From positions 1,590,001 through 1,622,000 of the forward strand of contig NZ_LT671858.1 of the NCBI RefSeq assembly GCF_900083515.1: a stretch of DNA of 32,000 nucleotides, in the 5' to 3' direction. The stretch comes from Cuniculiplasma divulgatum (GTDB taxonomy: Archaea; Thermoplasmatota; Thermoplasmata; Thermoplasmatales; Thermoplasmataceae). Of this stretch, positions 6,773-32,000 are shown in pieces (the stretch's first letter is position 1; the number at the start of each line of letters is the position of its first letter). Position numbers and translations under genes: made by a program. Under the pieces are notes generated by a model, which saw only the letters and a program-made list of their open reading frames with translations, was not told the DNA's origin and ran no database searches.

Positions 6773-7792
6773 TCAATGCATAAGGAGGTATCTATCCCTT
6801 TCATATTCTGAAATCCTGCTGATCTGATTTTCTATGGATTTTACCTCACTGTCGAGATCAAATTTCAAATCCATATTTTCCTCTTTGAGCATAAGATATA
6901 TGGAACCAATCACTGCATGATATCCGTATAAAGGTTCAGATGGAAACATATCTGGATGCTGATCTAGTACGATTTTTCTGATTTTATCCCAGTAAATGTT
7001 TGATGCTCTGAATAATCCCCCATAGCCACTAAAATGTACCTTCTCCTCACCAAACATTGATTCCGTGAGTGATGTAATACATCTTGCTGCCTCTGCGGCA
7101 GATTCTTCCATGAGCAAAGTTGCAAGATCATCCTCTTTTTCAGCCAGTTTTGATACTATGCTGGCGAATGAAGCTATTCTTCCTATTTCAGGTGGATTTG
7201 TGTACACCTTATTCACAATCTCTTTCAGATCATTTATTTGAAAATAGTCCTTAACATAATCTGGAATATCACTTCTTATGCCTGAACGACCATCATAAAT
7301 TTTCATTGTTTCCTGCAGTGCCCTTTTTGCTATGTAAAAAGCTCCACCCTCATCGCCCAGTATCCACCCCCATCCACTGACTCTTTTGAATATGTTTCCC
7401 TTCCTTCCATAGGAAACCATTCCTGTACCTGGACATATTACTATTCCATCCATTCCTGGAAATCTGCATTCGAATCCCGCTTCTCCATCGTTAAGTACTC
7501 TTACCTTTGAAGCCCTTTCCTTATCAACGATACTTGATACAAGTTCATTTTTTAAATTTGAGTCCTTCACACCTGCCAGTGCTATGGAAAATTTTGTTAT
7601 TTCACTCTCATCCACATCTGCCCTGTGAACAGCCCTTAATATGGCTTCCCTTATGTTTTTTCCAGCTTTCTCAACTCCAGCGGTCCTGTAATTGCCTGAA
7701 CCTGAAATGCCCATTCCGTGGATAATTCCATCTTCAGAATAACAAACCGCCACGGTCTTTGTGGCACCACCATCCACGGAAATAAACATCAT
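6773..7792 (-). CDS. BadF/BadG/BcrA/BcrD-type ATPase, probable N-acetylglucosamine or N-acetylmuramic acid kinase (paralog 1)
   Basis: 339 aa. N-terminal ISVDGGATKT phosphate-1 motif, PGTGMVSYG, and GWGWILGDEGGAFYIA, typical of NAGK/MurK-like kinases. Confidence 0.8.
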   Translation of the reverse strand: MMFISVDGGATKTVAVCYSEDGIIHGMGISGSGNYRTAGVEKAGKNIREAILRAVHRADVDESEITKFSIALAGVKDSNLKNELVSSIVDKERASKVRVLNDGEAGFECRFPGMDGIVICPGTGMVSYGRKGNIFKRVSGWGWILGDEGGAFYIAKRALQETMKIYDGRSGIRSDIPDYVKDYFQINDLKEIVNKVYTNPPEIGRIASFASIVSKLAEKEDDLATLLMEESAAEAARCITSLTESMFGEEKVHFSGYGGLFRASNIYWDKIRKIVLDQHPDMFPSEPLYGYHAVIGSIYLMLKEENMDLKFDLDSEVKSIENQISRISEYERDRYLLMH

Positions 7793-7822
7793 TCTTACTG
7801 TTAACCTTCAGGAATACATAAA

Positions 7823-8923
7823 TTAATCTGAATTGTTGAGCACAGAGAATACAAAGTTATGAAATCTTCTTCTGAATTTTAGTATCCTGATATTTTCCCT
7901 TGTTGGATATACCCTGTTAGTCAGTACAATTGCATAGGATCCTGTTTTTGGATCTATACAGATGGATGTTCCGGTGAATCCAGTATGTCCGAATGCACCA
8001 TAATTAACAGTTTCTCCCATGAATGCATTGTAACCAAATGATGGCCCTGAAACCAATGGTCTTGGAACCTTTATCATCCATCCCAGGCCGAACATTCCTC
8101 CTATATTCTGGTTCTGTGGTGTTATCATTTGATTAAGTGTTTCCTTTCTGACAATTTTTCCGTTTAAAAGAGCTTCAGTAAAGATGCCCAAATCGTGAGT
8201 GCTGCTGAATAACCCTGCATGGCCGCATACACCCCCATAAAAAAATGCCTTCTCGTCATGTACCTTTCCCCATACTGGCATCCCCCTTTCTGGATCCTCC
8301 TCTGTTGGTGCAATGTTTTCTTTTGCAACAGAAGGATTGAAGAATGAGCTCTTCATTGAAAGAGGTGAGAATATCTTCTCTTTTGCAAGAATATCAAGAG
8401 ATTTTCCTGAGATTTCCTCGAGAAGGAAGGCAAGCAGTATGAAGTTTAGATCACTGTATTCTTCCGTTGCTGGAAGGGTATTATGCTGGTGCATCAATCC
8501 AATGGTTCGGAGGTAGTCTTCCTTCGTTTTTCCATATTTGTATAGAGGAAATGTTGAGGTAAGACCTGATGTGTGTGTTATGAGCTGTTTAACCGTTAGA
8601 TTGGAAATTAACAGATCCTGATTATAGAGACCAAGTGATCCAAGGCTGTCCTCCAAACTTAGTTCTCCTCTCTCCACATATTTCATTACAAGACTTGCTG
8701 TTACTACCGGTTTTGTAAGAGAAGCCATATCATATATGGTATTCTCATTATATTTGAAATTGAGTTCTTTTATTTCTCCTGTAAAATATGATGTTTTATA
8801 TGATCCTTTTCCAACCAGAACGTTCATTCCTGATGATACACCCTTATAATTTTTCTCAACGAATTCCTTCAGCTCTTCTGAGAAACCATTCATATTCCTT
8901 CCACTTTTGCGGTTTTCACCCAT
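7823..8923 (-). CDS. Beta-lactamase-fold serine hydrolase (class C / DD-peptidase-like); possible AmiE(YbbE)-like MurNAc-L-Ala amidase
   Basis: SxxK active-site motif in MASLTKPVV, and HTGFTG near the C-terminus. The track starts at GTG 8932. I prefer ATG 8923, which lies 2 nt after the upstream stop and 5 nt after an SD-like AGGTGG. No signal peptide. Confidence 0.78.
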   Translation of the reverse strand: MGENRKSGRNMNGFSEELKEFVEKNYKGVSSGMNVLVGKGSYKTSYFTGEIKELNFKYNENTIYDMASLTKPVVTASLVMKYVERGELSLEDSLGSLGLYNQDLLISNLTVKQLITHTSGLTSTFPLYKYGKTKEDYLRTIGLMHQHNTLPATEEYSDLNFILLAFLLEEISGKSLDILAKEKIFSPLSMKSSFFNPSVAKENIAPTEEDPERGMPVWGKVHDEKAFFYGGVCGHAGLFSSTHDLGIFTEALLNGKIVRKETLNQMITPQNQNIGGMFGLGWMIKVPRPLVSGPSFGYNAFMGETVNYGAFGHTGFTGTSICIDPKTGSYAIVLTNRVYPTRENIRILKFRRRFHNFVFSVLNNSD

Positions 8924-8925
8924 GT

Positions 8926-9912
8926 TCACCACCTCACGACCTTGTTCAGATTCGAAGGATGATCAGGATCCAGACCCATACTTACAGCCTTGAAATTTGC
9001 AAGAAGCTGAATGAAAACAAGTGAATTGAAAACTTTTTGAAACGGTTTTTCCTCGTTGAATTTCAGCACTGCTTCTCCATTCCCTATTGTAATTATTTCT
9101 CCAGATAGTTCCTCTAGTTTTTCCATAATTTTTTTGTTTGGTAAACTACCCTCAGTCAGCCATATAATAGTTGTTTCCCTGTCCAGTCTGTGGATCGGTC
9201 CATGAAAATATTCCCTTGTTGGATATGATTCTGTGATCAGTCCAGTGGTTTCCTTGAACTTAAGACCACCCTCAAGAGCCACTGGATAGCTCTTTTCTGA
9301 ACCCAGGAAAACAACCTTATTATGGATTTCAGATGAAAGTAATCTTATTTGCTCTGTCAGTGAAAATATTTTTTCTATACCACTGCATAAATGATCCAGA
9401 TCTTCAACCAGTTTTTTATCATTCCTGAGACTGTAGTCCATGAGCATCGATACAGCCACCTGAGCAGCGTGGGACTTGGTTGCCGCTATGGACTTTTCCT
9501 TTCCAGCGTGTGTGAGTATGGGATGATCGGATTCCATGAATAGCTGACTTTCTTTCTCATTTGTTATTCCTATGACTGTAAATCCATATTTCTTTGAAAG
9601 CTTCAAATTGGATATTGCATCGCTACTTTCACCTGACTGGCTAAAAATTATGTTAGTGATAGTGCCTTTCATATTCCTTACAATATTTTCAGTGTATTCT
9701 GACGATGTCATCGCCACTGATCTTATGCCGTTTTCCAGTAATGTATAATTTAGGATGAGAGCAGCGTTATAACTGGTTCCACTACCTGTAATAAAGACCA
9801 GAGATGAATTTTTTATTTGATCTATTACTTTTTTAATTTTATCAGCGTTTTCATTGATAGTTTTCCTTATGGCCTCAGGCTCTTCCTGGATCTCTTCATA
9901 CATGACTGTCAT
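8926..9912 (-). CDS. Double-SIS-domain sugar-phosphate isomerase, GlmS-isomerase-domain-like; probable glucosamine-6-phosphate deaminase (GlmD/NagB-II type)
   Basis: 328 aa. Start EIQEEPEAI, then ITGSGTSYNAAL and SQSGESSD SIS motifs. A TATA-like ctataaat (9935-9942) is centred about 27 nt upstream of the ATG at 9912. Confidence 0.8.
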   Translation of the reverse strand: MTVMYEEIQEEPEAIRKTINENADKIKKVIDQIKNSSLVFITGSGTSYNAALILNYTLLENGIRSVAMTSSEYTENIVRNMKGTITNIIFSQSGESSDAISNLKLSKKYGFTVIGITNEKESQLFMESDHPILTHAGKEKSIAATKSHAAQVAVSMLMDYSLRNDKKLVEDLDHLCSGIEKIFSLTEQIRLLSSEIHNKVVFLGSEKSYPVALEGGLKFKETTGLITESYPTREYFHGPIHRLDRETTIIWLTEGSLPNKKIMEKLEELSGEIITIGNGEAVLKFNEEKPFQKVFNSLVFIQLLANFKAVSMGLDPDHPSNLNKVVRW

Positions 9913-9934
9913 ATGGGGTTGTATGGGTATTAAC

Positions 9935-10011: not shown

Positions 10012-10052
10012 TAATATCTTATATAGATGGATAAACTCACTTTATTAAAGTG

Positions 10053-11210
10053 ATGAGTCTGGAAAGCAGTATTCTTTTGAAGAGGATCATTACAATCAAT
10101 GGTTGCAGGGATAACTGCTATCTAAATGTGAAAGATGGAGTTATACACAGCATAACGGAGAAGAAAATTTTTGATAACGAAATTGTGGATTTTTCAAATC
10201 TCACTGCAGTTCCAGGATTTATAGATATACACACCCACGGTTATTTTGGTGTTGACGCAACATACTCATCTGAAGAAGAAATTCACAGATGGGCACAAAT
10301 GCTTGCAAGAAAGGGCATCACCTCATTTATACCCACATGCGTCTCCCTTCCCCTTGAAACCATGATAAAATTTATCAATAAAATCAGATCAGCATCACTT
10401 CATCAAAAGGAAGATGAGGCGAGAATACTTGGTATGAGGAGTGAAGGCCCATACATAAGCCTAGAACAAAAGGGTGCACATAATCCACTGTACCTGAGAA
10501 GACCAGATATAGATGAATTAAGAAAAATAATTCAGGCTGCTGGCAGTTCCCTTTTCATAATTGATATGGCTCCTGAACTTGAAAATTTCAGAGAGTCGCT
10601 GGAGTATCTACTGGAAAATAATAAGGTTGTTTCTATTGGACATTCAAATGCCTCCTATTCCCAGGCCACGGCAGGAATAGATTCTGGTGCAAGACTGATG
10701 ACACACTTTTTTAATGCCATGTCTCCCCTAAAGCACAGAGAGGCCGGAATGGTTGGTGCTGGTCTCTTATCTGATTCAGTTTATCTGGAACTCATAGGAG
10801 ACATGCATCACGTTTCCAGAGAAGCTATTAAGATTTTGCTGAAAACAAGAGACATTGATCACATAATTGGAATAACGGACTCATTATCCATAGGAGGGAC
10901 AACTTCAGCTGATGCAAAGCTAGGAGGTCTTGATGTCATTAAGAAGGACGGTGTGGCATGGATCAGGGATACAAACACCATAGCTGGTAGTATCCTAACC
11001 ATGGATACAGCGTTCCAGAATCTTCATGAAATAGTTTCTGATCCGGTGAATCTTACAAAGATATTTTCTACCAATGCCTCGAAAGCACTGAGCCTGAAGA
11101 ACATTGGATATATAGATGTGGGAATGGATGCTGACATAAATATCATTGATGATCATATGAAAGTTAAAGGAACCATGATAAGGGGATGTATGATCGGTGA
11201 TGTAAAATGA
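10053..11210 (+). CDS. nagA: N-acetylglucosamine-6-phosphate deacetylase
   Basis: PGFIDIHTHG metal-binding motif, EGPYIS...KGAH, IGHSNA and HFFNAM blocks typical of NagA. The track start is GTG 10050; the ATG is at 10053. Confidence 0.9.
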   Translation: MSLESSILLKRIITINGCRDNCYLNVKDGVIHSITEKKIFDNEIVDFSNLTAVPGFIDIHTHGYFGVDATYSSEEEIHRWAQMLARKGITSFIPTCVSLPLETMIKFINKIRSASLHQKEDEARILGMRSEGPYISLEQKGAHNPLYLRRPDIDELRKIIQAAGSSLFIIDMAPELENFRESLEYLLENNKVVSIGHSNASYSQATAGIDSGARLMTHFFNAMSPLKHREAGMVGAGLLSDSVYLELIGDMHHVSREAIKILLKTRDIDHIIGITDSLSIGGTTSADAKLGGLDVIKKDGVAWIRDTNTIAGSILTMDTAFQNLHEIVSDPVNLTKIFSTNASKALSLKNIGYIDVGMDADINIIDDHMKVKGTMIRGCMIGDVK

Positions 11211-11253: not shown

Positions 11254-12078
11254 ATGACTCTGTCCACTGAAGATGTAAACCCTTTCTCCATAGATATTGG
11301 TGAATGGGATATAGAAACAATTAGCTCATTTATTCACCTCTCAGATATAGCTGCATATGAAGCAGTTGGAAAAGCAATGAATAAAATTTCTGAAGCCTGC
11401 AAAATGATTCTGGAATCGCTCGAAAAGGGTGGTAGGGTTATTTATCTTGGAGCAGGTACAAGTGGGAGGGTTGCTGCCCAGGATGTTGTTGAACTGCTTC
11501 CCACATATGATCTTGGCACAGAATTTTTTGATTTTATACTTGCTGGAGGACCCGGATCGCTGGTGAAATCCGTTGAAGGGGCAGAGGATGACGAAAATGG
11601 ATCTGTTGAAGAATTGAAGAAGAGAAATATCAATTCGAAAGATATTATTGTTGGAGTAACGGCCTCAGGTTCTACCCCTTTTGTCCTTGGTGGTATGATC
11701 TACGGAAGATCCTTAGGATGCAAGACCATAGGAATAACAAACAATCATGCCAAAAGAATAGAGCAGTATTCTGATCTGTGTATAGAGCTGATTACTGGAC
11801 CGGAAGTGATACAGGGATCAACCAGAATGAAGGCAGGTACCGCACAGAAGATGGCACTGAATATAATTTCAACTACTGTAGCAGTAAAACTAGGAAGAAC
11901 GTATAAAAATACCATGTCTCATATGGGTTCATGGTACAATGAGAAACTGAAGAAACGATCGGTTAACATACTTATGACACAGTTCTCAATGAAGGAAACG
12001 GAAGCCATGAAGTTGCTTGCTGAAAACAATTATAACATTAACAAATGCATAGAAATTTTGAAAAGGGTAGATAAGTAG
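11254..12078 (+). CDS. murQ: N-acetylmuramic acid 6-phosphate etherase
   Basis: 274 aa. SIS motif GGRVIYLGAGTSGRVA, TASGSTPF and GSTRMKAGTAQKM, all characteristic of MurQ. An SD-like AAGGTGGAG lies about 10 nt upstream. Confidence 0.92.
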   Translation: MTLSTEDVNPFSIDIGEWDIETISSFIHLSDIAAYEAVGKAMNKISEACKMILESLEKGGRVIYLGAGTSGRVAAQDVVELLPTYDLGTEFFDFILAGGPGSLVKSVEGAEDDENGSVEELKKRNINSKDIIVGVTASGSTPFVLGGMIYGRSLGCKTIGITNNHAKRIEQYSDLCIELITGPEVIQGSTRMKAGTAQKMALNIISTTVAVKLGRTYKNTMSHMGSWYNEKLKKRSVNILMTQFSMKETEAMKLLAENNYNINKCIEILKRVDK

Positions 12079-12126: not shown

Positions 12127-13200
12127 ATGATAAAATCAGTAAAATTTAAAAAGATGAATCTTGAAATGAAGAAGCCCTTCAAGATTGCACTGGGCTCAAC
12201 GGACTTTTATGAAGGTTTTCTTGTTTCCATAGAAACCGATGATGGGATAACCGGTTATGGAGAAGCTACAACAACACCATTCATTACGGGAGACACCATA
12301 GGTTCAATAGAAAGTGAGCTAGCCTTCTTTTCAAAGAAACTGGTTGGCGAAGATGAATCACCAGAGACTATTAACACAAAGATGAAAGCGTGGATGAGAT
12401 CATCAAAGGCAAGCAGAAATGCTATTGACTGTGCACTGTGGGATATCATAGGAAAAAGAGCAAATATGAATCTTGTAAAATTGCTGGGTAATCATAAGAA
12501 GTCAATCCTGACATCATACACTGTAGATCTTGTTGATTCAGAGACAGCCAAAACACAGGCAAAGGAACTATTATCACAGGGTCTCAGGGTATTCAAGATA
12601 AAGGTAGGTTCTGGGATCGAGGAGGATCTTAAGAGGGTAAAGGTTGTAAGAGAGATAGTTGGGGAAGACAAGATGATTTACATAGACTTCAACCAGGCAT
12701 ACAGCGTGAAGAATGCGGTTAAAATATCAAGACTTCTTGAGCCCTATAATATAGAATTTATGGAACAACCCATAGCATCTACGGATATTTCTGGACTGCG
12801 TTTCATCAGAGATCATTCTGAAATACCTGTTTATGCAGATGAGACTATTTTCACACCACAGGATGTTTCTGAAGTTATGAGGAGAGAAGCCGTGGATGGC
12901 ATAAATATAAAGCTTATGAAATCTGGAGGTATTTCTGATGCAATGCAGATGGCGAACACAGCAAAGTCATTTGGAGTGCCTGTAATGATCGGATGTATGG
13001 TTGAAACCAGAATTGCAAACACCTCTGGTCTTATAGTAGCTTTGAGTAATTCTGCAGTTAAATATGCTGACCTTGACGGATACAATAACATAAAGGAAGA
13101 TCCTGTCACAGAGGGCATTTTGATGAGTAAGGGAGAGGTAAGGTTATCTAATGATTTACCAGGTACGGGTATATCTGTGAAAGAAAAATTCAGGATATAA
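12127..13200 (+). CDS. L-Ala-D/L-Glu (dipeptide) epimerase, enolase superfamily (YkfB/YcjG-like)
   Basis: 357 aa, with an MR/MLE-type layout: FKIKVG, IDFNQAY, MEQP, YADE, INIKLMKSGGI (the two catalytic Lys contexts and the metal ligands). Confidence 0.85.
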   Translation: MIKSVKFKKMNLEMKKPFKIALGSTDFYEGFLVSIETDDGITGYGEATTTPFITGDTIGSIESELAFFSKKLVGEDESPETINTKMKAWMRSSKASRNAIDCALWDIIGKRANMNLVKLLGNHKKSILTSYTVDLVDSETAKTQAKELLSQGLRVFKIKVGSGIEEDLKRVKVVREIVGEDKMIYIDFNQAYSVKNAVKISRLLEPYNIEFMEQPIASTDISGLRFIRDHSEIPVYADETIFTPQDVSEVMRREAVDGINIKLMKSGGISDAMQMANTAKSFGVPVMIGCMVETRIANTSGLIVALSNSAVKYADLDGYNNIKEDPVTEGILMSKGEVRLSNDLPGTGISVKEKFRI

Positions 13201-13318
13201 TAAATTTATAAATTATATTAATAAAAATTTTAATTAAAAGAATTAAACAATTAAAATTACAGGTATTTTTGTTTTATTAATTGCCAAATGAGTAAATTTA
13301 AGTTCGTTCCTTACATCA

Positions 13319-14323
13319 ATGAGTATGTTGCTTGCCATTGACGGGGGATCTACAAAAACCATATCTGTTGTATTTGATGAGGAAAAAAATGAGATAGTTT
13401 CTGTTGGACTTAGCGGATCAGCAAATTATACTACGAATAGTCTGGAATTTGCCATAACAAACCTAAGCAAATCTATAAATGATGCAATAGAAGCGGCAGA
13501 TATAACAATGGATTCGATTGAAAAGGTAATCGTGTCAATAGTAGGAATAGGAGATTCAGAAGAAGCAACAAAAATGGGAAATGAGATAATTTCCAGTCTT
13601 ATTGGGAAAAGAGAATATAGTGTAATTAATGATGGCCTGGCTGCTTATTACTTAGGAAACGGTAGTGAAAATGGTATAGTTTTTGCACCTGGTACTGGAA
13701 GTGTGGGATACATAAAGATAGAAAATAGAATGAAAAGATTTGGAGGATGGGGATGGAGCATTGGAGATATGTCCTCTGCCACATGGTTTAGTAAAAAATC
13801 TGTTGAGGTTGCAATGATGGAAATGGATTCAGAAAGTGGTAGAAAACCATTTCTTGAAACTGTAGAGAATCATTTCAAGACTTCGTTAAGGGAATTATCC
13901 TGGCAGATTGAACGCAGATATATACAAAAGGAGAAATTAGCCTCATTTTCAGTAAATCTATCAAGGATGGCAAAGGATGGAAACAAAGAGGCACTCGCAC
14001 TGTTCGATGAATCTGCATCCTATATGGGTAAAATTATTAATGGAATTAGAAGTAAATATTCTGATGCAAAAAGAGTTTCCATAATGGGTGGGACAATGCA
14101 GGCAGGAGAATTTTATTATAAAATGATTAGAAAATATATACCTGATGTTAACATATTTTTTGGATATGAAATTGTAATTGGAACTATTATGCATATGAAG
14201 AATGAGATGGATTTTAAATTCAGAGACAGTTTGCTTAAGCAGCTTGATCATTCCCTTGAAAAAATACCGGAAGGTGAATTAAAGGGGTATTTGAATATAG
14301 ACAAACCAATGAAACTTCCATGA
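13319..14323 (+). CDS. BadF/BadG/BcrA/BcrD-type ATPase, probable GlcNAc/MurNAc kinase (paralog 2)
   Basis: 334 aa. LAIDGGSTKT, PGTGSVGY and GGWGWSIGDMSSATW match the same kinase family as 6773-7792, but the two are clearly divergent. Confidence 0.78.
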   Translation: MSMLLAIDGGSTKTISVVFDEEKNEIVSVGLSGSANYTTNSLEFAITNLSKSINDAIEAADITMDSIEKVIVSIVGIGDSEEATKMGNEIISSLIGKREYSVINDGLAAYYLGNGSENGIVFAPGTGSVGYIKIENRMKRFGGWGWSIGDMSSATWFSKKSVEVAMMEMDSESGRKPFLETVENHFKTSLRELSWQIERRYIQKEKLASFSVNLSRMAKDGNKEALALFDESASYMGKIINGIRSKYSDAKRVSIMGGTMQAGEFYYKMIRKYIPDVNIFFGYEIVIGTIMHMKNEMDFKFRDSLLKQLDHSLEKIPEGELKGYLNIDKPMKLP

Positions 14324-15358
14324 TCATTCTTTTTCAAAATTGAAAACGCCAGATACCATCTTTATATCCTCAAGGGTGGCATTTTTTCCCCCTACTGTAT
14401 AAGTACCAGTTATAGTTTTGATTACAAATGCGTACTGCAAACCCTGAATTCTCTTTACAGAGATAACATCTGCATTAAGTGAAACAGGTCCACTGGCGTC
14501 AAATCCTTCTACTTCAACCTTGCACTTATATCCTTTTGAAAAAGCGTTATCAATTAGTTCACATGCAAGCCAGGATGAAGAAATTTTAACATTTTCCATT
14601 CCATCGAAGTCGCGGTAATATCTTGATGAGACCCAGTTCATATTGAAAAAGTAGTAATCGAGAACATCAACGAGCTCTTCCTCCTGTATAAATATAGAAT
14701 AATCAGAAGTTTGAGAAAGAGAATTTGCATTCAAGAAAGCTATTTTTCTATCAACAACCACAATTTCAACGGGCATTATACTTCTTATTCTTAGTATGCC
14801 AAGTTCAGATAATGTGACCAAACTTTTTTCATCTATGCTCTCTTTCATAACAGAGCATATTGTGACCCCTCTTTTTCTGGCCCTCCTTAATGCAGGCAGG
14901 AGTTCAGCTAGCTTATGATATTCCATAGATAATATAATTTCTGAATTAGACTCTGAAATCATCAATTCAAGCTTCAACATCACGCTCTTGCTGTTTTCTA
15001 TAAACCATACATTGGGAGCCCTAATTTCAAAATCACTCCTGTTCTCCAGAATATATTTATCCAAACGATCAATGTACTCATTCATATATTCTACATTGTG
15101 CCTGAGAGCTGCTGAAGGCATTATGGCCTCATAAGTTTTGTTTATGCTCGAGTTCATGATTATGAGCCCTTTTCTCTGAAGTTTACCAAGAACATCATAT
15201 GTTCTTGGCTGGGGAATTCCAGTAACCTTTATTATTTCACTGGCGCGCATAGGACCCTTTAACAACAGTGAGGAATAAGCCTTGATCTCGTAGTTAGATA
15301 ATTGAAATTTTTCTAAGTCTCTGAATGTATCTGAATCCAAATCGATCACATAGTTCAT
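14324..15358 (-). CDS. TrmB-family sugar-sensing transcriptional regulator
   Basis: 344 aa. N-terminal winged helix YEIKAYSSLLLKGPMRASEIIKVTGIPQPRTYDVLGKLQRKGLI, plus a long C-terminal effector domain. Its stop abuts the stop of the convergent kinase gene (TGATCA at 14321-14326). Confidence 0.85.
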   Translation of the reverse strand: MNYVIDLDSDTFRDLEKFQLSNYEIKAYSSLLLKGPMRASEIIKVTGIPQPRTYDVLGKLQRKGLIIMNSSINKTYEAIMPSAALRHNVEYMNEYIDRLDKYILENRSDFEIRAPNVWFIENSKSVMLKLELMISESNSEIILSMEYHKLAELLPALRRARKRGVTICSVMKESIDEKSLVTLSELGILRIRSIMPVEIVVVDRKIAFLNANSLSQTSDYSIFIQEEELVDVLDYYFFNMNWVSSRYYRDFDGMENVKISSSWLACELIDNAFSKGYKCKVEVEGFDASGPVSLNADVISVKRIQGLQYAFVIKTITGTYTVGGKNATLEDIKMVSGVFNFEKE

Positions 15359-15391
15359 GCGTTAAAAATATTTAACTATAACATTATATCG

Positions 15392-17323: not shown

Positions 17324-17329
17324 TATTCC

Positions 17330-18391: not shown

Positions 18392-18395
18392 ACTT

Positions 18396-20112: not shown

Positions 20113-20120
20113 TTTTTCAC

Positions 20121-21692: not shown

Positions 21693-21700
21693 GATTAAAA

Positions 21701-21767
21701 TACTATATATGTTTTTTTATGGGTTTAAATATTGCCATGTCCAGTGTCGCAAAATATCGTGCCATGT
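21701..21767 (-). promoter_or_regulatory. Promoter region of the ABC/GH31 operon, with AT-rich TATA candidates and a direct repeat TGCCATGT (21733-21740, 21760-21767)
   Basis: TATA candidates on the minus strand are ATAAAAAAA (about 24 nt from the ATG at 21692) and AATATTTAAA (21724-21733). The exact 8-mer repeat, spaced 27 bp, sits immediately upstream of them. Confidence 0.3.
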
Positions 21768-21806
21768 TTTCCAATTTGAATTATTGGAGCTATAATACAA
21801 CTGCCT

Positions 21807-23234: not shown

Positions 23235-23265
23235 ATTTATTAAATATATTCCTTTTTAAGATTGG

Positions 23266-24953: not shown

Positions 24954-26165
24954 TCAATAAAGCATTATTTCCTTTATCTCCTCCCTGTATCTTTCCAATT
25001 CTCCCTGATAACTTTCTATAATATCCAATGGACTATCACCTGAAATGATCCTTTTCCTTATTTCCTTATTACCCGCAACAGAATCAAAATAGTGATCATA
25101 AAATTCTATATTATCAGAGTGGAATGTGTATATTGATGATAATAGATGTATCACAAATTCAAATGGCTTGAATAGATTTCTGTTACTCACATTAATCATT
25201 ATCCCATTGCACTTTTCTCCTGTGTATTTGGAGAAATAGGGCTTGAATCTTACCTCATTCAGAACGACTCCTGCAAGTTTTTGCTTCTCAATAGCTGAAA
25301 TTACCTTTCTTGCATCCATCCATGGGGAACCTATGAGCTCGAAAGGTCTGGTCGTTCCCCTCCCCTCTGATATGTTTGTCCCCTCAATTAAAACGCATCC
25401 TGGATAAACTATGGCAGTCTGCAGCGTTGGCATATTTGGAGATGGCAGGGTCCATGGTATTCCTAGCTGATCGTACCACATATCCCTTTTCCACTGCTTC
25501 ATTTTTACTATTTTAAGTCTAACATTTTCTCGGGATATTTTTCTGTTGAAGAAATTTGCAAGTTCTCCAATTGTGAGAGAATGCTTAATTGGAACTGGCA
25601 GAGAACCAATGAAAGATTGAAGATTATCAAGAAGCACTGGACCATCAGGATTCTCTCCGCTTAAGGGGTTTGGCCTGTCAAGCACTACAAAATCTATGCT
25701 AGATCCACCTACTGCTTCCATTGCATATATCATTGTTGCAATATATGTATAAATCCTGCATCCCACATCCTGAAGATCGAATATGATTGTGTCAAACTGA
25801 TCCATAACATCTCTGGAAATAAATTTGGAAGAATCTTTAATTGAATCTGTTTCCCTCATTTCCCTGTCAATATCAATGGAACCTGAACTTTTTTTAGAGT
25901 CAGGTTTCCTGTAAAGACTTTCTACCTGTACTCCAAGTGCATTATCGTAATAGGATTCAACTGTCTCTCCTGACTGATAATCACCAAAATACCCATGCTC
26001 AGGGGTCAGTAAGGTTAGATTTCTGTAACCTCCAATTTGTTTAACTGCGTCGAGAGATGACAATCCTTCATGATTTCCGGCCCAGTTGTTTGTTATCAAC
26101 CCTACCCTCTTATTCTCTATAAAATCTGTCTTTATGGAACCTAACTGATCAATCCCCATCAACAT
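24954..26165 (-). CDS. namZ: DUF1343 / NamZ-like exo-beta-N-acetylmuramidase (GH171 family), paralog 1
   Basis: 403 aa. Family blocks RVGLITN, PEHGYFG, FDLQDVGCRIYTYI, LDRPNPLSG and EGRGTTRPFE. No signal peptide. Confidence 0.82.
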   Translation of the reverse strand: MLMGIDQLGSIKTDFIENKRVGLITNNWAGNHEGLSSLDAVKQIGGYRNLTLLTPEHGYFGDYQSGETVESYYDNALGVQVESLYRKPDSKKSSGSIDIDREMRETDSIKDSSKFISRDVMDQFDTIIFDLQDVGCRIYTYIATMIYAMEAVGGSSIDFVVLDRPNPLSGENPDGPVLLDNLQSFIGSLPVPIKHSLTIGELANFFNRKISRENVRLKIVKMKQWKRDMWYDQLGIPWTLPSPNMPTLQTAIVYPGCVLIEGTNISEGRGTTRPFELIGSPWMDARKVISAIEKQKLAGVVLNEVRFKPYFSKYTGEKCNGIMINVSNRNLFKPFEFVIHLLSSIYTFHSDNIEFYDHYFDSVAGNKEIRKRIISGDSPLDIIESYQGELERYREEIKEIMLY

Positions 26166-26224: not shown

Positions 26225-26914
26225 TTACAGGCTTTTTGTTACACGCCCAATTTTCTCAAATATTTCGTGAAGATTCTTAGAGTATTTGCTTCCATCAAAG
26301 AGATTATTCACCGATACACTTGCTGAATTTCCGTTTGCGTGTATCATATTTCCATCACCAAGGTAGAGACCTACATGACCCTTAAAAAACACCAGATCAC
26401 CTGGTTTAGCACTGTCAAAATTATCAACAGTCTCTGTAAAATCTCTCTGTGAACCAGAGTTTCTTGGAATCTGTACACCTGTGAATTTGTAGAGCCTTTG
26501 TACAAAACCCGAACAGTCATATCCAAATTCGGATGTTCCTCCCCACAGGTATGGTACCCCTATAAATTCCATTGAAAGATCACATACAGAGAAGTTGTTG
26601 TTTGAAACTCTAACAAGCTTATTTTCTGGTATTTTATATTTTTCAGCCTCTTCCTTACTCACGTAAGAACCAAAAGGGAGCTTGATTTCTGGATGACTGT
26701 GAAATCTTCTTAATTTATATGACTTATCTGTGTATTCTGTAATTATATTTGTTTTTATATATCCCTTAACGTGATCCTGAGATTGGATCAGCGAATAGGC
26801 ATCTCCCCTTTCCAGAAGATCAAATTTCTCTCCAAAAACAACCTGAGTTTCTCGTTCAGATTCAAACATCGCCTTACTTCTTAAATCTCCTACACCTATT
26901 CTTATCTGATACAT
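26225..26914 (-). CDS. NlpC/P60 cysteine peptidase with an N-terminal SH3-like region (YkfC-like gamma-D-glutamyl-L-diamino-acid endopeptidase)
   Basis: 229 aa. Catalytic Cys context YLWGGTSEFGYDCSGFVQRLY and His context GHVGLYLGDGNMIHA. No signal peptide. Confidence 0.85.
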   Translation of the reverse strand: MYQIRIGVGDLRSKAMFESERETQVVFGEKFDLLERGDAYSLIQSQDHVKGYIKTNIITEYTDKSYKLRRFHSHPEIKLPFGSYVSKEEAEKYKIPENKLVRVSNNNFSVCDLSMEFIGVPYLWGGTSEFGYDCSGFVQRLYKFTGVQIPRNSGSQRDFTETVDNFDSAKPGDLVFFKGHVGLYLGDGNMIHANGNSASVSVNNLFDGSKYSKNLHEIFEKIGRVTKSL

Positions 26915-27143: not shown

Positions 27144-27674
27144 ATGAATGTTGCAAATGTAGTAATCTTATTAGGATGCAGGTCCTCTGGATGCTCCCCT
27201 ACTGAGGAGCTTAAGGGAAGAGTTAAGGAGACGGTTAATCTTTACAGATCATTGAAAGAAAAAGCTGTTATAATTCCATCAGGGGGAGTCTCAGAAGATG
27301 GTTGTGGTTTATCAGAAGCCGAATTTATGTTAAGGGAACTTTTAAAATATAATATTCCAAGAGAGAGAATATTCTTAGAGGAAAAAGCCAAAACCACAAT
27401 TGGCAATGCATTCTTTTCAAAACTGCTTATTGAAAGTAATAATATTGAGTATGAAATGATTCATATCGTAAGTTCGTGCTACCACATGGATAGATCAGAG
27501 CTCATTTTCAAGAGCATATTTTCAACAGAAAACATTGGAAAGGGATATTGTTTTGGTCATGTTCAGGAAAGAGAAAGCGAGATTGATAAACTGAAGAGAG
27601 ATTCTTCTATTCTGGAAAAGATGAAGGGAAAATCAGCAGAATATATAGAAAACACTTTTAGGGAATATCTTTAG
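27144..27674 (+). CDS. DUF218 / YdcF-family protein
   Basis: 176 aa. The pattern IIPSGGVSEDGCGLSEAEFMLRELLKYNIPRERIFLEEKAKTTIGNAFFS follows the DUF218 core (SGG...SEAxxM...GIP...I.xExxSxxTxxNA). No TM helix. Confidence 0.72.
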   Translation: MNVANVVILLGCRSSGCSPTEELKGRVKETVNLYRSLKEKAVIIPSGGVSEDGCGLSEAEFMLRELLKYNIPRERIFLEEKAKTTIGNAFFSKLLIESNNIEYEMIHIVSSCYHMDRSELIFKSIFSTENIGKGYCFGHVQERESEIDKLKRDSSILEKMKGKSAEYIENTFREYL

Positions 27675-27708: not shown

Positions 27709-29004
27709 TTAATCCTTTAAAGTTTTAGCAGACTCGTAGAATTTTGTGTGCCTGACAATGTCCTGGAAATTATCCTTCTCCCTTATTGTTATTAGTTTCC
27801 CATCACTGATCAGTAATTCCATTGGAAGTAACCTGCCGTTATAGTTGCTTGCCATAGACATTGTGTAAGCCCCGCAGTTGAAGACTGCAACTATATCACC
27901 TATTTGTGGCTCCTGCAGCATTACATCCTTCCCGATCCTGTCAGTGTTTTCGCAGATTTGTCCTGTTACATCAGTTTTAAATTTTCGTTCTTCGTTCATC
28001 CTGTTTGCTATGAGTATATGGTGATAGGCTCCGTAAAGAGCTGGTCTCATAAGTATGTTCATCCCTATATCTGTACCCGTGAAGTTTGACTCCTGTCTTT
28101 TAACGTCTGTAATTTTACCCACTAACAATCCTGAGTTGGAGCTTATGTATCTACCGGGTTCAATCACGAGCCTTGGTATTTCCCGACCTTTTTCTGTGTA
28201 AAATGCTTTGAATACGTCAGCTATGTTTTTGGCTGTGTCCATAACATCCAGTTCATCCTCTTCAGGTCTGTATGGTACACCAAATCCTCCTCCCATATCC
28301 ACAAATTCGAATTCAATACCAAGCTCTTCCTCGAAATTTTTAACAACTTCCAGAATCTTTTGAGCAACTAATTTAAAATGGTCGGCGTTTCTTACGTTTG
28401 ATCCAGCCATAACGTGGATTCCGAACATCCTGCATCCCTTTTCCTTTGCCTCCCTGTAACCCTGTAATGCAAGCTCCGGAATTTCTCCAAATTTTGCCCC
28501 TTTACCTGCTGTTTTTATGCCTGGAAATTCCCCCTTTCCATAATCAATTTTAATTCTAAAACTCACTATTTCTGGTAAGTGATCAAGCACCATTCTGAAC
28601 TGACTTAGAGAATCAAAGTTTATTGTTATATTCTTATCAATTGCAAATTTTAATTCTTCTATAGTTACATTATTTGGTGTAAAAGATATATTATCAGGAG
28701 ATACCCCACTCAGCAGAGCTATTTTTATTTCATTTACTGACGATGCATCCATTCCACATCCCTCAGATGAAAGAATGGAAATCAGTGAGGGATTGAAATT
28801 TGATTTTATTGCAAAATCTATGGACACATTTTTGAAATATTTATTAAAAGCATCTTTAATTTTTCTATAATTGCCACGTAAAATATTCTCAGAATAGATA
28901 ATAAAAGGCGTTCCATAATCTTTTGCTACCTCTACAATGTCATTACCATACCAAAATAAATTCCCATCTATTATTTCCGTATAACGTGGCAGGATTTCAT
29001 CCAT
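27709..29004 (-). CDS. lysA: Diaminopimelate decarboxylase (PLP-dependent, Orn/DAP/Arg decarboxylase family 2)
   Basis: 431 aa. PLP-Lys context DFAIKSNFNP, glycine loop MGGGFGVPY, EPGRYI and CENTD blocks. A TATA-like element (reverse complement CCTTAAATAA, 29025-29034) lies about 26 nt from the ATG at 29004. Confidence 0.88.
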   Translation of the reverse strand: MDEILPRYTEIIDGNLFWYGNDIVEVAKDYGTPFIIYSENILRGNYRKIKDAFNKYFKNVSIDFAIKSNFNPSLISILSSEGCGMDASSVNEIKIALLSGVSPDNISFTPNNVTIEELKFAIDKNITINFDSLSQFRMVLDHLPEIVSFRIKIDYGKGEFPGIKTAGKGAKFGEIPELALQGYREAKEKGCRMFGIHVMAGSNVRNADHFKLVAQKILEVVKNFEEELGIEFEFVDMGGGFGVPYRPEEDELDVMDTAKNIADVFKAFYTEKGREIPRLVIEPGRYISSNSGLLVGKITDVKRQESNFTGTDIGMNILMRPALYGAYHHILIANRMNEERKFKTDVTGQICENTDRIGKDVMLQEPQIGDIVAVFNCGAYTMSMASNYNGRLLPMELLISDGKLITIREKDNFQDIVRHTKFYESAKTLKD

Positions 29005-29181: not shown

Positions 29182-30234
29182 TTATAATTTTGAGTGAATC
29201 ATTCTTTTCATCTTTAGGTACCGATGTTCAAGAATTATTTGAGTTATATCAGCTTCAGGGATTGCATATTCGAATCCGTGGAAAATGCCATCATATACGT
29301 GAAGGTCTACTCTTCCGTTGGAATTTATAAGTTTTCTAGCAAAGTCAACTGATTCATCTCTAAAAACCTCGTCGAATCCTACCTCAATATAAGTTTCTGG
29401 AAAACCTTCTAAATCGGTTGCTATGGATGGAGAGGCAAATTCAGATATCTCTTTTTCTGAGCCAAGATATCCTCTCCATCCCATTCTGTTATAGTACGTT
29501 GGCCAGAAAGGCCAGCTACCATCATACTGAGCACTGGAAAGAGTTGTATTCCTGTGATCTAGCATTGGTGCCATAAGGAATAGGTTCCTTATTTGTGGGC
29601 CATTTTCTCTAATTGAGCGCAAAACAACTGAAGCAGCAAGGCCACCGCCAGCACTTTCTCCCATTATGCTTAACATTTCCGAATTAATTCCAAGACTTTC
29701 GGCAAGAGCTGAACAGTACTGGAACCCGTAATAACAGTCATTCAATGGGATTGGAAATTTAAATTCTGGTGCAAGTCTATATTCTATGTCAAAAATTTTA
29801 CATCCCAATTTAAGCGATATGGAAGCCAGCCTATTTATTTCCTCATCTATTCCTCCTACAAGTAAACCTCCTCCATGGATATGAAAAATACATGGGAGTA
29901 AATCTTTCGATCCTGACGGTGAGTAGAGCTTCGCTCTTATGTGCGTTCTATGAAATGATTCGTTAATTTCTGCAACTTCAATTCCTGGGATATCAAGCGA
30001 ATCTGATGTGACACCGGCGGATTTTCTTGCATTAAGTAGATTTTGCTTAAATTGAATAACCCTATCTTCTACATTGGAAATTCTATTCAACTTCTCAATG
30101 TTGTTTCGAACAAGCAAAGACCTTCTAGCTGCCTCTTCTCTTACTTCCATCACAAGATTACTAACACGTGAATGGATTTCACTTGCTCCCATCAGGGGTC
30201 TAATACATGTTGTGTAAATAATTGTTTTTATCAA
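29182..30234 (-). CDS. Alpha/beta-hydrolase fold-3 esterase (hormone-sensitive-lipase-like family)
   Basis: Oxyanion motif HIHGGGL and nucleophile elbow GESAGG. The track start is TTG at 30234. ATG at 30192 (MGASEIHS...) is more likely, because a TATA-like AATTATTTA (30215-30223, minus strand) is centred 27 nt upstream of it. Confidence 0.8.
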   Translation of the reverse strand: MIKTIIYTTCIRPLMGASEIHSRVSNLVMEVREEAARRSLLVRNNIEKLNRISNVEDRVIQFKQNLLNARKSAGVTSDSLDIPGIEVAEINESFHRTHIRAKLYSPSGSKDLLPCIFHIHGGGLLVGGIDEEINRLASISLKLGCKIFDIEYRLAPEFKFPIPLNDCYYGFQYCSALAESLGINSEMLSIMGESAGGGLAASVVLRSIRENGPQIRNLFLMAPMLDHRNTTLSSAQYDGSWPFWPTYYNRMGWRGYLGSEKEISEFASPSIATDLEGFPETYIEVGFDEVFRDESVDFARKLINSNGRVDLHVYDGIFHGFEYAIPEADITQIILEHRYLKMKRMIHSKL

Positions 30235-30526: not shown

Positions 30527-30540
30527 AAATAATATTATTA
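30527..30540 (+). promoter_or_regulatory. Putative TATA box for the second namZ-like gene
   Basis: AAATAATATTATTA is centred about 28 nt upstream of the ATG at 30562. Confidence 0.3.
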
Positions 30541-30561
30541 TGTTATTCCAGATACAAACCA

Positions 30562-31662
30562 ATGTCCTTTAACCTCGGGATTGAAAATCTTGGAAAAAAT
30601 AGAATAAATGAGAATGTGGCCTTATTAACTAATGCCAGTGGAGTAACTCAGAATTTAGAGCAAAACGTTGAATTTCTAATAAGAAAAGGGTTCAGAATTA
30701 GAAGGATTTTTACAGCGGAACATGGTTTTTATGGAACACTAAACGATGGGGATGATGTTAAAAATGAGACATATAACGGGATAGATGTTGTATCCATTTA
30801 TTCTGCAGATAGAAAGTCCATAAAACCGGAAGAGCTGGAAGATGTTGATACAGTGATATATGATTTACAGGATGCTGGCACAAGACCATATACATTTATC
30901 TCTTCGCTAAAAAACCTATTAATCACAGCCTCGGAGCTTGGAAAAAAGGTTGTTGTGTGCGATAGACCCAATCCCCTTTCCAACATTGTAGATGGACCTG
31001 TGTTAAAGAAGGAGTTTGTTTCATTTGTTGGAGCGGACGAATTTCCACTAAGATACGGAATGACCATAGGTGAATTAGCTCAATTCATGAATAGAAATAT
31101 TGGTGCAGATCTGAATATTTCAAAGATGACAGATTACGATCCGTCAAGATATTATGACAATTACATGAAATATTACGTCCCACCATCACTGAACCTAAAT
31201 TCTCTAGACTCAATGTTTAACTTTTCAGGAATGGTATTAATGGAGGCAGCTAATGTTAGCGTTGGTAGAGGCACTCCATACCCATTTATGCAGTTTGGAT
31301 TGGAAGATCCAGTAGATCTTAGATCTGATGAGTTCGAAGGTGTCATTCTGAGAAAAACTTCCTTTATATCATTGCTAAATCCGCTTAAAGAAAAGAAACT
31401 AATAGGATATTTCATTCATATAAAGGATAAAAAGAGTTACAGTAGCATAAGGATGGTAGCCACTATCATGAAAAAACTCTATAACATGGATAAAAATCTA
31501 ATTAATTTAAAAAAGCTGAATCTTAATTACGGATCTGATGAGATGTCAAAATGGCTTGAGAAAAATGAGATAGTCACAGATCTTTATGAAAAAATTAATT
31601 CAGAAATCTCCGAATTCATGAAAATCAGGAAAGATTACTCACTTTACAGGTTTCCTAATTAA
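30562..31662 (+). CDS. namZ: DUF1343 / NamZ-like exo-beta-N-acetylmuramidase (GH171 family), paralog 2
   Basis: 366 aa. It has the same blocks as paralog 1 but is divergent: VALLTN, AEHGFYG, YDLQDAGTRPYTFI, CDRPNPLS, VGRGTPYPF. No signal peptide. Confidence 0.8.
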   Translation: MSFNLGIENLGKNRINENVALLTNASGVTQNLEQNVEFLIRKGFRIRRIFTAEHGFYGTLNDGDDVKNETYNGIDVVSIYSADRKSIKPEELEDVDTVIYDLQDAGTRPYTFISSLKNLLITASELGKKVVVCDRPNPLSNIVDGPVLKKEFVSFVGADEFPLRYGMTIGELAQFMNRNIGADLNISKMTDYDPSRYYDNYMKYYVPPSLNLNSLDSMFNFSGMVLMEAANVSVGRGTPYPFMQFGLEDPVDLRSDEFEGVILRKTSFISLLNPLKEKKLIGYFIHIKDKKSYSSIRMVATIMKKLYNMDKNLINLKKLNLNYGSDEMSKWLEKNEIVTDLYEKINSEISEFMKIRKDYSLYRFPN

Positions 31663-31711
31663 TGAACCATAATCTTTATTTTACATTCTTACATAGTTTT
31701 TTGTTTTGATC

Positions 31712-32000
31712 TCAATCAACCATAGATTCCATCAGTTCAATATAAGGTTCTGATTCGCTTATTCTTACCTTCAGGTTAAGAGGTATTAGCATCTGTTCAT
31801 TTCCATGCCCAAAAGGTGCCATGGCTAGAGATGGTTTTGAATATTTTACCATGTATTCCCTTATTACATCTTCTATTGATGGTTTTCCTTCTCCTGAGGT
31901 TGACCTATTCTTAAATTCCCCAAATACAAATCCTGCAAGTTGATTAATCGTGCCATTGAGTATCATTATGTCCAGATATCTTTCTATGTCTACTGATCTT
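31712..32000 (-). CDS. ldcA: LD-carboxypeptidase (peptidase S66, LdcA/YkfA-like), C-terminal part; the gene continues past the right edge
   Basis: The C-terminal AGFVFGEF...PSLAMAPFGHGNEQMLIPLN matches the S66 C-terminal block, with the catalytic His in FGH. I checked that the frame stays open upstream of the track Met at 31966 (...RSVDIERYLDIMILNG) up to position 32000, so the listed 84-aa ORF is a truncation artefact. Confidence 0.7.
   Translation of the reverse strand, partial: RSVDIERYLDIMILNGTINQLAGFVFGEFKNRSTSGEGKPSIEDVIREYMVKYSKPSLAMAPFGHGNEQMLIPLNLKVRISESEPYIELMESMVD

Follow-up and report, generated by a model that had tools for sequence, protein, structure and literature searches.

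A conserved gene cluster of Thermoplasmatales that probably serves the digestion of bacterial murein fragments in the cytoplasm

We analyzed a 32-kb stretch of the genome of the archaeon Cuniculiplasma divulgatum (hereafter the window; positions 1,590,001 to 1,622,000 of contig NZ_LT671858.1, renumbered from 1), which carries, from position 6773 to its end at 32000, a cluster of genes whose products belong to enzyme families that break down peptidoglycan (murein) in bacteria. A preliminary description of the window had read this cluster as a locus for scavenging bacterial cell-wall debris in a host without a murein wall. Our analysis makes it likely that the locus is a conserved pathway of Thermoplasmatales that digests imported bacterial murein fragments in the cytoplasm of an archaeon making no murein itself. 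The set of about 20 genes, conserved and expressed, looks made for the import and full digestion of bacterial cell-wall fragments.

Host, conservation and expression of the cluster

Genes were called from a listing of open reading frames (ORFs) and from Pfam and NCBIfam profile scans of the window proteins, and all genes named in the preliminary description were recovered in this way at 6773-32000. Its supposition that the host is a Thermoplasmata-like archaeon was also correct. By exact sequence matching, the window was also located on the MAG (metagenome-assembled genome) contig DAICVK010000002.1. NamZ1, MurQ, LysA, TrmB, the flavin mononucleotide (FMN) dehydrogenase, FixC and the ATP-binding cassette (ABC) ATPase of the window were 100% identical to C. 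divulgatum proteins, and related copies of window proteins were found in C. divulgatum S5 (locus tags CSP5), ‘C_DKE’ and ‘G-plasma’. C. divulgatum is cell-wall-deficient, and cryo-electron tomography (cryo-ET) showed that it has no S-layer (PMC12448462); the absence of a wall is also reported in PMC5155288.

The same gene set was found in syntenic arrangement in three further Thermoplasmatales lineages at 31-84% protein identity, so that the co-location of the genes is not due to chance. A core recurs that consists of an AmiE-like S12 hydrolase, a SIS-domain deaminase, NagA, MurQ, a dipeptide epimerase, a GH3 enzyme of the NagZ type, NamZ and a YkfC-like P60 peptidase, and its frequent companions are LysA, LdcA, a DacB-like S13 peptidase, a CocE/NonD hydrolase and a DUF218 protein. 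The gene order in Picrophilus oshimae (NamZ1 53% identical) is BadF-SIS-NagA-MurQ-S13-LysA-P60-giant SBP_bac_5-S12-GH3-epimerase-NamZ-DUF218, and that in two MAGs (loci L089 and L090, NamZ1 66-67% identical) is S66-NamZ2-LysA-DUF218-P60-NamZ1-S15-GH3-epimerase-MurQ-NagA-SIS-S12-BadF1. A MAG with a NamZ1 of 52% identity (L091) has S12-SIS-NagA-MurQ-epimerase-244-aa protein-GH3-S15-P60-NamZ-MFS, and a Thermoplasmataceae MAG (L101; MurQ 49% identical) has OppFDCB-SBP_bac_5-AnmK-P60-SIS-NagA-MurQ-S12-S15-GH3-epimerase-NamZ2-type-M19 dipeptidase. The last cluster thus contains both a complete OppABCDF system and AnmK. AnmK acts only on 1,6-anhydro-N-acetylmuramic acid (1,6-anhydro-MurNAc), a product of lytic transglycosylases, and its presence in the L101 cluster is therefore strong contextual evidence for a murein substrate. 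NamZ2 orthologues were 77% identical in L090 and 52% in L101, where this is the sole NamZ of the locus. The 120 best MurQ homologues listed were 48-96% identical, and every one whose source was named came from a Thermoplasmata archaeon. The trait is order-wide and no peculiarity of this locus, so that any acquisition from bacteria, as had been proposed, would be old.

A hydrophobicity scan revealed no N-terminal hydrophobic segment in any enzyme, the S13 and S66 peptidases included, in agreement with the earlier statement that the enzymes have no signal peptides; within the window, the only cluster proteins with hydrophobic segments were the binding protein and the permeases. Hydrolysis would thus be cytoplasmic. 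An N-terminal hydrophobic segment was found in none of the 25 closest NamZ1 homologues, whereas 72 of the 95 next ones (bacterial where named) had it, and Bacillus NamZ orthologues carry leader peptides where the archaeal NamZ1 just begins.

The cluster is expressed at the protein level. According to the supplementary tables of a proteome study of C. divulgatum S5 grown in axenic culture, at least 13 cluster proteins were detected (PMC7285479): the S12 hydrolase (CSP5_1664), the SIS deaminase (CSP5_1665), the epimerase (CSP5_1668), BadF2 (CSP5_1669), the S15 hydrolase (CSP5_1677), the P60 peptidase (CSP5_1679), LysA (CSP5_1681), the esterase (CSP5_1682), NamZ2 (CSP5_1683), LdcA (CSP5_1684), SBP_bac_5 (CSP5_1685), the S13 peptidase (CSP5_1686) and the amidase (CSP5_1689). 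The order of the CSP5 annotation was the same as the gene order that we deduced for the cluster.

Predicted steps of the sugar and peptide branches

All enzyme activities and substrates given below are predicted from family membership, motifs and gene context. The enzymes map onto the MurQ, NagZ, AmiE and NamZ steps and onto the YkfABC steps of bacteria, as the preliminary description had stated, and key motifs were intact in the proteins inspected (NamZ1 and NamZ2, MurQ, GH3, P60, the S12 protein and S66).

In the cytoplasm, the GH3 beta-N-acetylglucosaminidase of the NagZ type (21807-23234, minus strand; Glyco_hydro_3, 175.5 bits) would take off the terminal N-acetylglucosamine (GlcNAc). Gene callers place its start at 23216, which gives a protein of 469 aa. 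All 24 listed structure matches at E <= 1e-15 were GH3 hexosaminidases or close relatives, and the closest solved relatives were all N-acetylglucosaminidases. NagZ enzymes are marked by the signature KH(F/I)PG(H/L)GxxxxD(S/T)H and an Asp nucleophile. When the window protein was aligned to 3tev, the NagZ signature KHFPGHGSVMVDSH and the ISDSMDM nucleophile region were both present, the signature having the form KHFPGHGsvmvDSH, that is, the NagZ-type KHFPGHGxxxxDSH. It scored 157.4 bits with the NagZ equivalog NF003740 and did not reach the cut-off of 207; the protein is a divergent member.

The stem peptide would then be split from MurNAc by the serine hydrolase of the S12/beta-lactamase fold (7823-8932, minus strand; Pfam Beta-lactamase PF00144, 157.7 bits), which has the motifs S71LTK (SxxK) and H316TG. 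Its best NCBIfam model was the PBP4B equivalog NF002968, with 116.7 bits against a cut-off of 385. In six Bacillaceae loci that were fetched through NamZ (L013, L016, L023, L039, L040 and L041), the gene directly upstream of GH3-NamZ encodes a homologue of 29-37% identity, and in three of the six MurQ lies further upstream. The published operon order of B. subtilis is murQ-murR-murP-amiE-nagZ-namZ (PMC8054146), so that the Bacillaceae homologues stand at the amiE position, which makes the archaeal protein a candidate exo-MurNAc-L-Ala amidase of the AmiE/YfeW type. A genome scan with NamZ gave 80 loci, 24 of which have a homologue of the S12 protein no more than 10 kb from NamZ, and the protein is kept in all four Thermoplasmatales lineages. 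AmiE of B. subtilis presumably has the S12 fold itself. The preliminary description had listed this gene as a stem-peptide enzyme; the gene is there, but the role at the AmiE position of the Bacillus operon fits better, and as an amidase candidate it would fill the sole step absent from that description's list.

MurNAc, or disaccharides, would be freed by two GH171 paralogs, NamZ1 (24954-26165, minus strand; NamZ_N 214.6 and NamZ_C 159 bits) and NamZ2 (30562-31662, plus strand; NamZ_N 199.9 and NamZ_C 86.2 bits), both predicted to be exo-beta-N-acetylmuramidases. The two proteins share 28% identity, and in each of them both domains exceed the Pfam cut-offs. Two residues of NamZ1, the glutamate of PEHG (E56) and the arginine of SEGRG (R269), were invariant in 24 relatives, and NamZ1 aligned to the two Bacteroides fragilis DUF1343 structures, 4k05 and 4jja, that served to model NamZ of B. 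subtilis (BsNamZ; PMC8054146). In BsNamZ, Glu92 at the end of strand 2 was proposed to be catalytic and Arg279 is conserved in the C-terminal domain (PMC8054146); we equated E56 and R269 with this numbering by motif position only. The corresponding motifs of NamZ2, by inspection of its sequence, are AEHG and VGRG. Among the matches listed in a profile search of genome contigs with the NamZ alignment, homologues were at most 46% identical and nearly all bacterial, and none was from Thermoplasmatales. NamZ homologues of 35-39% identity also occurred on contigs binned as Hadarchaeota (L015, CAYFPZ010000005.1) and Nitrososphaerota (L083, CAZWAU010000208.1), which may be mis-binned; L015 also carries an S12 protein and OppD/F.

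Phosphorylation of MurNAc and GlcNAc would fall to BadF1, a sugar kinase of the BadF/NagK type (6773-7792, minus strand; Pfam BcrAD_BadFG, 118 bits). Its closest solved structures were the hexokinase of S. tokodaii (2e2n), followed by a clostridial MurNAc/GlcNAc kinase (8zo3). BadF1 is the kinase copy that is kept with the murein cluster in relatives, with a 68% identical orthologue at the same place in L089, and it is our candidate for a MurK-like MurNAc/GlcNAc 6-kinase. MurNAc-6-P would next be converted to GlcNAc-6-P and D-lactate by the MurNAc-6-P etherase MurQ (11254-12078, plus strand), which scored above the cut-offs of NF003915 (305.9 vs. 168) and NF009222 (261.2 vs. 255) but below that of the stricter equivalog TIGR00274 (252.8 vs. 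302). The protein could be aligned over residues 2-266 to two MurQ structures, 4lzj and 1nri. E. coli MurQ has two catalytic glutamates, Glu83 and Glu114, and both acidic positions are conserved in the alignment with 4lzj, in the motifs DVVE and VEGAED. The GlcNAc-6-P deacetylase NagA (10050-11210, plus strand; TIGR00221, 284.8, cut-off 225.65) and a two-SIS-domain GlcN-6-P deaminase of the NagB-II/GlmD type (8926-9912, minus strand; Pfam SIS) would complete the branch, yielding fructose-6-P, acetate and ammonium. The deaminase corresponds to the isomerase half of GlmS and is without a glutaminase domain, and its NCBIfam matches were all below cut-off (GlmS C-terminal region 196 bits, NagB-II 124 and GlmD 107).

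In the peptide branch, D-Ala would be trimmed by the DacB-like S13 peptidase and by an S66 LD-carboxypeptidase of the LdcA/YkfA type, of which the window holds the C-terminal part (31712-32000, minus strand) before the gene leaves it. The whole S66 protein in L094 has 320 aa with Peptidase_S66 and S66C domains (128.3 and 94.1 bits), and its Ser-His-Glu triad lies in the motifs GYSD, FGHG and CED. The gamma-D-Glu-mDAP bond (mDAP, meso-diaminopimelate) would be cleaved by an SH3b+NlpC/P60 peptidase (26225-26914, minus strand; NLPC_P60 and SH3_16 domains), a candidate YkfC-like gamma-D-Glu-diamino-acid endopeptidase. Its best structure was B. cereus YkfC (3h41), others including the Bacteroides dipeptidyl-peptidase VI (3npf and 3pvq), and its Cys-His-His motifs DCSGF, HVGLY and MIHA are kept. 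An enolase-superfamily dipeptide epimerase similar to YkfB/YcjG (12127-13200, plus strand; MR_MLE_N and MR_MLE_C) would turn L-Ala-D-Glu into L-Ala-L-Glu for a dipeptidase. The best structures were dipeptide epimerase 3jva (221 bits) and YkfB 1jpm (184 bits). Because it stayed under the cut-offs of the L-Ala-D/L-Glu epimerase (AEE) equivalog models (228 vs. 500 and 128 vs. 343), that specificity is not established by the models and is suggested by the context. The dipeptidase is possibly the alpha/beta hydrolase of the CocE/NonD (S15) type (23266-24903, minus strand; TIGR00976, 303.9), a candidate dipeptidase or peptide esterase with cocaine esterase and alpha-amino-acid ester hydrolases as closest structures; it is found in the L089/L090, L091 and L101 clusters and not in that of Picrophilus.

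The freed meso-DAP would be converted to L-lysine by the diaminopimelate decarboxylase LysA (27709-29004, minus strand; TIGR01048, 348.5, cut-off 297.9), which lies within the cluster in three lineages, namely Cuniculiplasma, L089/L090 and Picrophilus. For C. divulgatum, the lysine pathway was reported as incomplete and the lifestyle as that of a ‘scavenger’ of proteinaceous compounds (PMC5155288), which makes a DAP-to-lysine step attractive. The earlier idea that the locus serves as a lysine source is in keeping with the incomplete pathway and with the place of LysA inside the cluster.

The cluster continues for about 5-9 kb beyond the end of the window. Past base 32000, the S66 gene is completed and is followed by the genes for an SBP_bac_5 protein of 1115 aa, which has a signal at its N-terminus and an anchor at its C-terminus, the DacB-like S13 peptidase (no signal; SxxK and KTG motifs), a GNAT acetyltransferase, a 241-aa protein and an amidase-signature enzyme. 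GNAT and amidase homologues were also found near NamZ in several bacterial loci. The 241-aa protein (L094:18165-18890) is 54% identical to the 244-aa gene product inside the L091 cluster (L091:5143-5877); this protein, with a weak GATase_4/Ntn-hydrolase match only, travels with the murein cluster.

Uptake, the accessory block and alternative readings

In the proposed pathway, soluble muropeptides or stem peptides shed by neighbouring bacteria would be taken up, and the import probably goes through the giant membrane-anchored SBP_bac_5 binding protein just past the window, which is Opp/MppA-like. A SBP_bac_5 protein is part of the cluster in three lineages, and L101 has the full Opp system. The preliminary description had instead counted a different ABC importer as part of the pathway and had proposed that a kinase and an ABC route replace the bacterial MurP phosphotransferase system (PTS). 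That importer lies in an 8.6-kb block between the epimerase and GH3 genes (13192-21812), which comprises BadF2, a second BadF-type kinase (13319-14323, plus strand), and on the minus strand a TrmB (14324-15358), a GH31 MalA-like alpha-glucosidase missing from the earlier gene list (15392-17323; MalA model 722.8 bits, cut-off 800), a CUT1 ABC ATPase (17330-18391), two CUT1 permeases (18396-19220 and 19210-20112) and a membrane-anchored SBP_bac_1 binding protein (20121-21692).

This block is precisely missing in strain L095, where the epimerase and GH3 genes abut and the murein genes are retained. The junction is 26 bp (L095:1225-1252), and the identity of the flanks differed between the MurQ/epimerase side (96.3%) and the GH3 side (99.3%), suggesting recombination at the site. 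The block is also missing in L089, a 67% relative. Orthologues of the binding protein, permease and ATPase, 57-69% identical, adjoin GH38 and GH31 in Picrophilus (L098) and GH38, with TrmB nearby, in Thermoplasma volcanium (L099), and no murein genes were found beside them in either place. BadF2 was 42% identical to the T. volcanium BadF vs. 33% to BadF1. Taken together, these data suggest that the block is a separate alpha-glycoside uptake module, which lies inside the cluster in this strain. Accordingly, the importer of the preliminary description is not upheld as a part of the pathway. The kinase half of the proposed MurP replacement stands, BadF1 being conserved with the cluster; the ABC half does not, as an importer of the Opp/MppA/YepA type appears more likely. 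The TrmB travels with the accessory block and is therefore not to be taken as the cluster regulator, a role for which we rejected it. A k-mer search for a shared operator in 13 intergenic regions of the cluster returned only AT-rich words. A homologue of the CUT1 binding protein, 70% identical, is labelled ‘Candidatus Micrarchaeaceae archaeon’. The Micrarchaeaceae are an ARMAN-type group living on Cuniculiplasma, and the homologue could represent gene transfer between host and symbiont or mis-binning.

Three other readings of the locus were weighed. We consider it unlikely that the CUT1 transporter imports MurNAc, GlcNAc or GlcNAc-MurNAc, with BadF2 as the kinase and TrmB as the regulator of the whole supercluster. 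The position of the block within the cluster and the second kinase that it brings would suit such a role, and several bacteria do have CUT1-type permeases beside NamZ-BadF-MurQ (L037, L042, L059, L070 and L074). However, the murein genes stay where the block is missing, in the 96-99% identical L095 as in L089; the orthologous transporters keep company with GH38, and in Picrophilus also with GH31; the GH31 enzyme comes close to being an equivalent of the alpha-glucosidase MalA; no homologue of the window's binding protein was detected in the bacterial NamZ loci; and the clusters of L101 and Picrophilus have Opp-type components instead. A further reading, that the locus recycles an endogenous, unrecognised surface polymer of Thermoplasmatales containing MurNAc or D-amino acids, would agree with an all-cytoplasmic layout like that of E. 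coli self-recycling and with the dense, unordered surface layer of unknown chemistry seen by cryo-ET (PMC12448462). We regard it as very improbable: neither murein nor pseudomurein nor a DAP-containing polymer was reported for the order, genes for re-synthesis (Mpl, AmgK/MurU, Mur ligases) were absent from all loci examined, and the pathway ends catabolically, with MurQ-NagA-deaminase, P60-epimerase and LysA.

It could also be argued that the murein labels are over-read and that the locus serves the general scavenging of amino sugars and peptides, for example those that acid streamers offer as fungal chitin and proteins. The use of chitin-derived GlcNAc would likewise call for GH3, NagA, the deaminase and a GlcNAc-type kinase, no substrate is defined for the S15 enzyme, the esterase or DUF218, and C. 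divulgatum was described as scavenging proteinaceous compounds (PMC5155288). But MurQ lies above two curated cut-offs with its acidic motifs kept, two GH171 NamZ proteins, S66 LdcA, the YkfC-like P60, the DacB-like S13 and LysA have no role in the use of chitin or ordinary protein, the L101 cluster has the anhydro-MurNAc-specific AnmK, and the families assigned to the genes of these loci included neither a chitinase nor GH20. We regard scavenging of that kind as very improbable, too.

Several observations weigh against the digestion of imported murein fragments that we favor. Neither an endo-acting lysozyme or amidase nor any other secreted lytic enzyme was found in the locus, so that soluble fragments would have to be supplied by other organisms or by acid hydrolysis. 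The cluster scheme has neither an identified D-lactate dehydrogenase nor an identified D-Ala enzyme, and AnmK is not in the C. divulgatum cluster. Next to the SBP_bac_5 gene of Cuniculiplasma, there are no Opp permease or ATPase genes, and the SBP_bac_5 proteins of Cuniculiplasma and L101 gave weak matches only (dipeptide-, haem-, nickel- and oligosaccharide-binding proteins), so that a ligand is not assignable. The strict equivalog models for NagZ, AEE, PBP4B and MurQ (TIGR00274) stayed below cut-off; the proteins concerned are divergent members of these families, with specificities suggested by their context. The cluster proteins were produced by axenic cultures to which no murein had been added, which fits constitutive expression and would also fit an endogenous substrate. 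Finally, the absence of murein-synthesis genes is taken from the literature. The import route and the physiological use are likewise put forward as predictions. The bolder proposal that Thermoplasmatales are dedicated murein consumers, with muropeptides as a staple carbon and nitrogen source and meso-DAP via LysA as the lysine route, is possible, although we hold it to be doubtful.

Relation to known systems and neighbouring genes

The closest bacterial counterpart of the sugar branch is the B. subtilis rescue operon murQ-murR-murP-amiE-nagZ-namZ, which has the same families (MurQ, an S12 protein at the AmiE position, GH3 NagZ and GH171 NamZ) and the same sequential exo-degradation, here predicted, of GlcNAc, then peptide, then MurNAc (PMC8054146). 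Unlike this operon, the archaeal locus has a BadF kinase instead of the MurP PTS and no MurR, and the genes of the window and of the related loci examined gave no match to PTS or RpiR/MurR families. NagZ, AmiE and NamZ of B. subtilis are secreted (PMC8054146), whereas the archaeal enzymes have no signal peptides, and the archaeal host makes no murein and so has nothing of its own to recycle. The locus would work like a MurNAc rescue of the B. subtilis type, yet it is no member of that system. The peptide branch resembles ykfABCD of B. subtilis and ldcA-ycjG-mpaA of E. coli in its clustering of S66, an SH3b+P60 endopeptidase and an enolase-superfamily epimerase, but in the archaea this set is merged in one locus with the sugar branch and is joined by LysA, a cytoplasmic DacB-like S13, a CocE/NonD hydrolase and DUF218.

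Import followed by wholly cytoplasmic degradation is what E. coli recycling does (AmpG/Opp-MppA, NagZ, AmpD, LdcA, AnmK, MurQ), and the relative L101 even has AnmK and a full Opp system in its cluster. A SBP_bac_5-family protein also goes with the pathway in E. coli (MppA) and in the Opp-family muropeptide importer YejBEF-YepA of Agrobacterium (PMC9790009); in contrast to these, the archaeal binding protein is a membrane-anchored surface protein of 1115-1291 aa. The archaeal locus differs further from E. coli recycling in that it is without AmpG, AmpD and Mpl, has an AmiE-type hydrolase in place of AmpD, includes NamZ and is catabolic only. The layout can thus be read as an import-then-digest scheme like that of E. 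coli, with enzyme families of B. subtilis, that ends in catabolism.

Outside bacteria, the nearest precedent is found in anaerobic ciliates, which make no murein and have laterally acquired nearly the same set (pbp4b, NamZ, anmK, nagB, murQ and lysA), interpreted as serving the digestion of bacterial walls (PMC13198582). The ciliates are eukaryotic phagotrophs with dispersed genes, whereas here an osmotrophic archaeon has one syntenic locus kept across the order. Two divergent GH171 paralogs that exploit the murein of neighbours, as predicted for the archaeon, are also known as NamZ1 and NamZ2 of Tannerella forsythia (bioRxiv 10.1101/2021.12.02.470905), but that bacterium salvages MurNAc for its own wall.

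Each of the enzyme families is already known, and public annotation names MurQ, NamZ and LysA in these genomes. A full-text literature search, which most subscription journals lie outside, found no account of the pathway in archaea, although an earlier description is possible; archaea are nowhere mentioned in the founding NamZ paper (PMC8054146), nor are muramic acid and GlcNAc in the Cuniculiplasma genome papers (PMC5155288 among them). What appears undescribed is a conserved, all-cytoplasmic, LysA-linked locus for murein catabolism in an archaeal order without murein. Murein ranks among the largest stores of microbial necromass, and its breakdown is treated as bacterial, with phagotrophic eukaryotes as the other known users; if our reading is true, archaea would join the consumers of the bacterial cell wall, and the ‘scavenger’ lifestyle of Cuniculiplasma would have a concrete substrate. 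Salvage of lysine from DAP could then improve media for poorly culturable Thermoplasmatales. Should a dedicated use of murein be true, it would constitute a cross-domain nutritional dependency that helps to explain the bacterial-biofilm habitat and the difficult solo growth of these archaea. C. divulgatum and P. oshimae are both in culture, so the idea is directly testable, and the locus is a source of cytoplasmic NamZ, AmiE-type amidase and MurQ homologues from acidophilic, partly thermophilic hosts for enzymology.

Two further cluster genes had gone unlisted besides that for GH31. The DUF218 protein (27144-27674, plus strand; PF02698, 75.5 bits) is a conserved member whose neighbour in Picrophilus and L089/L090 is NamZ or LysA. 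The Abhydrolase_3 (HSL-family) esterase (29182-30234, minus strand; PF07859, 148 bits) was found only in loci of the C. divulgatum type (the window, L093 and L095) and is absent between NamZ2 and LysA of L090; our guess is an O-acetyl esterase. In L093 (4746-8100; Cuniculiplasma MAG GCA_027309815.1), LysA and the esterase are set apart by about 3.8 kb of additional DNA, which carries two fragments of DUF772 transposases and two other ORFs, placing an insertion sequence beside the esterase.

The window has an unremarkable GC content of 32-41%, and no tRNA genes or Rfam matches were found in its 32 kb. On its left flank, the cluster is preceded by an FMN-dependent alpha-hydroxy-acid dehydrogenase (5524-6687, minus strand) and, in a region that includes 1-1802, by a ChrB_C protein and a FixC-FixX-electron-transfer flavoprotein (ETF) set. 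The FMN_dh family acts on L-2-hydroxy acids, and the dehydrogenase was rejected, as unsupported, as a sink for the D-lactate of MurQ. On the ‘Hadarchaeota’ contig, a ROK kinase, NamZ and a MurQ-like SIS protein have an ETF alpha subunit and a GlcD-like FAD oxidase as their neighbours (L015:12-2377), and it is conceivable that such ETF/oxidase neighbours are tied to the disposal of D-lactate made by MurQ. Between ChrB_C and FixC, a stretch of 32% GC (2666-4360, plus strand) encodes a 241-aa ORF that matched no family and a SIR2_2 protein of 322 aa, for which PADLOC gave a weak ThsA/SIR2 match. The stretch is missing from the complete genome CP133596.1 (L096), which is otherwise 99% identical, and looks like a small, strain-variable island of the defence type. 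In P. oshimae, the murein cluster directly adjoins a type I CRISPR-Cas operon with Cas6, Cas8-like, Cas7, Cas5 and Cas3 (L100:1-4527).

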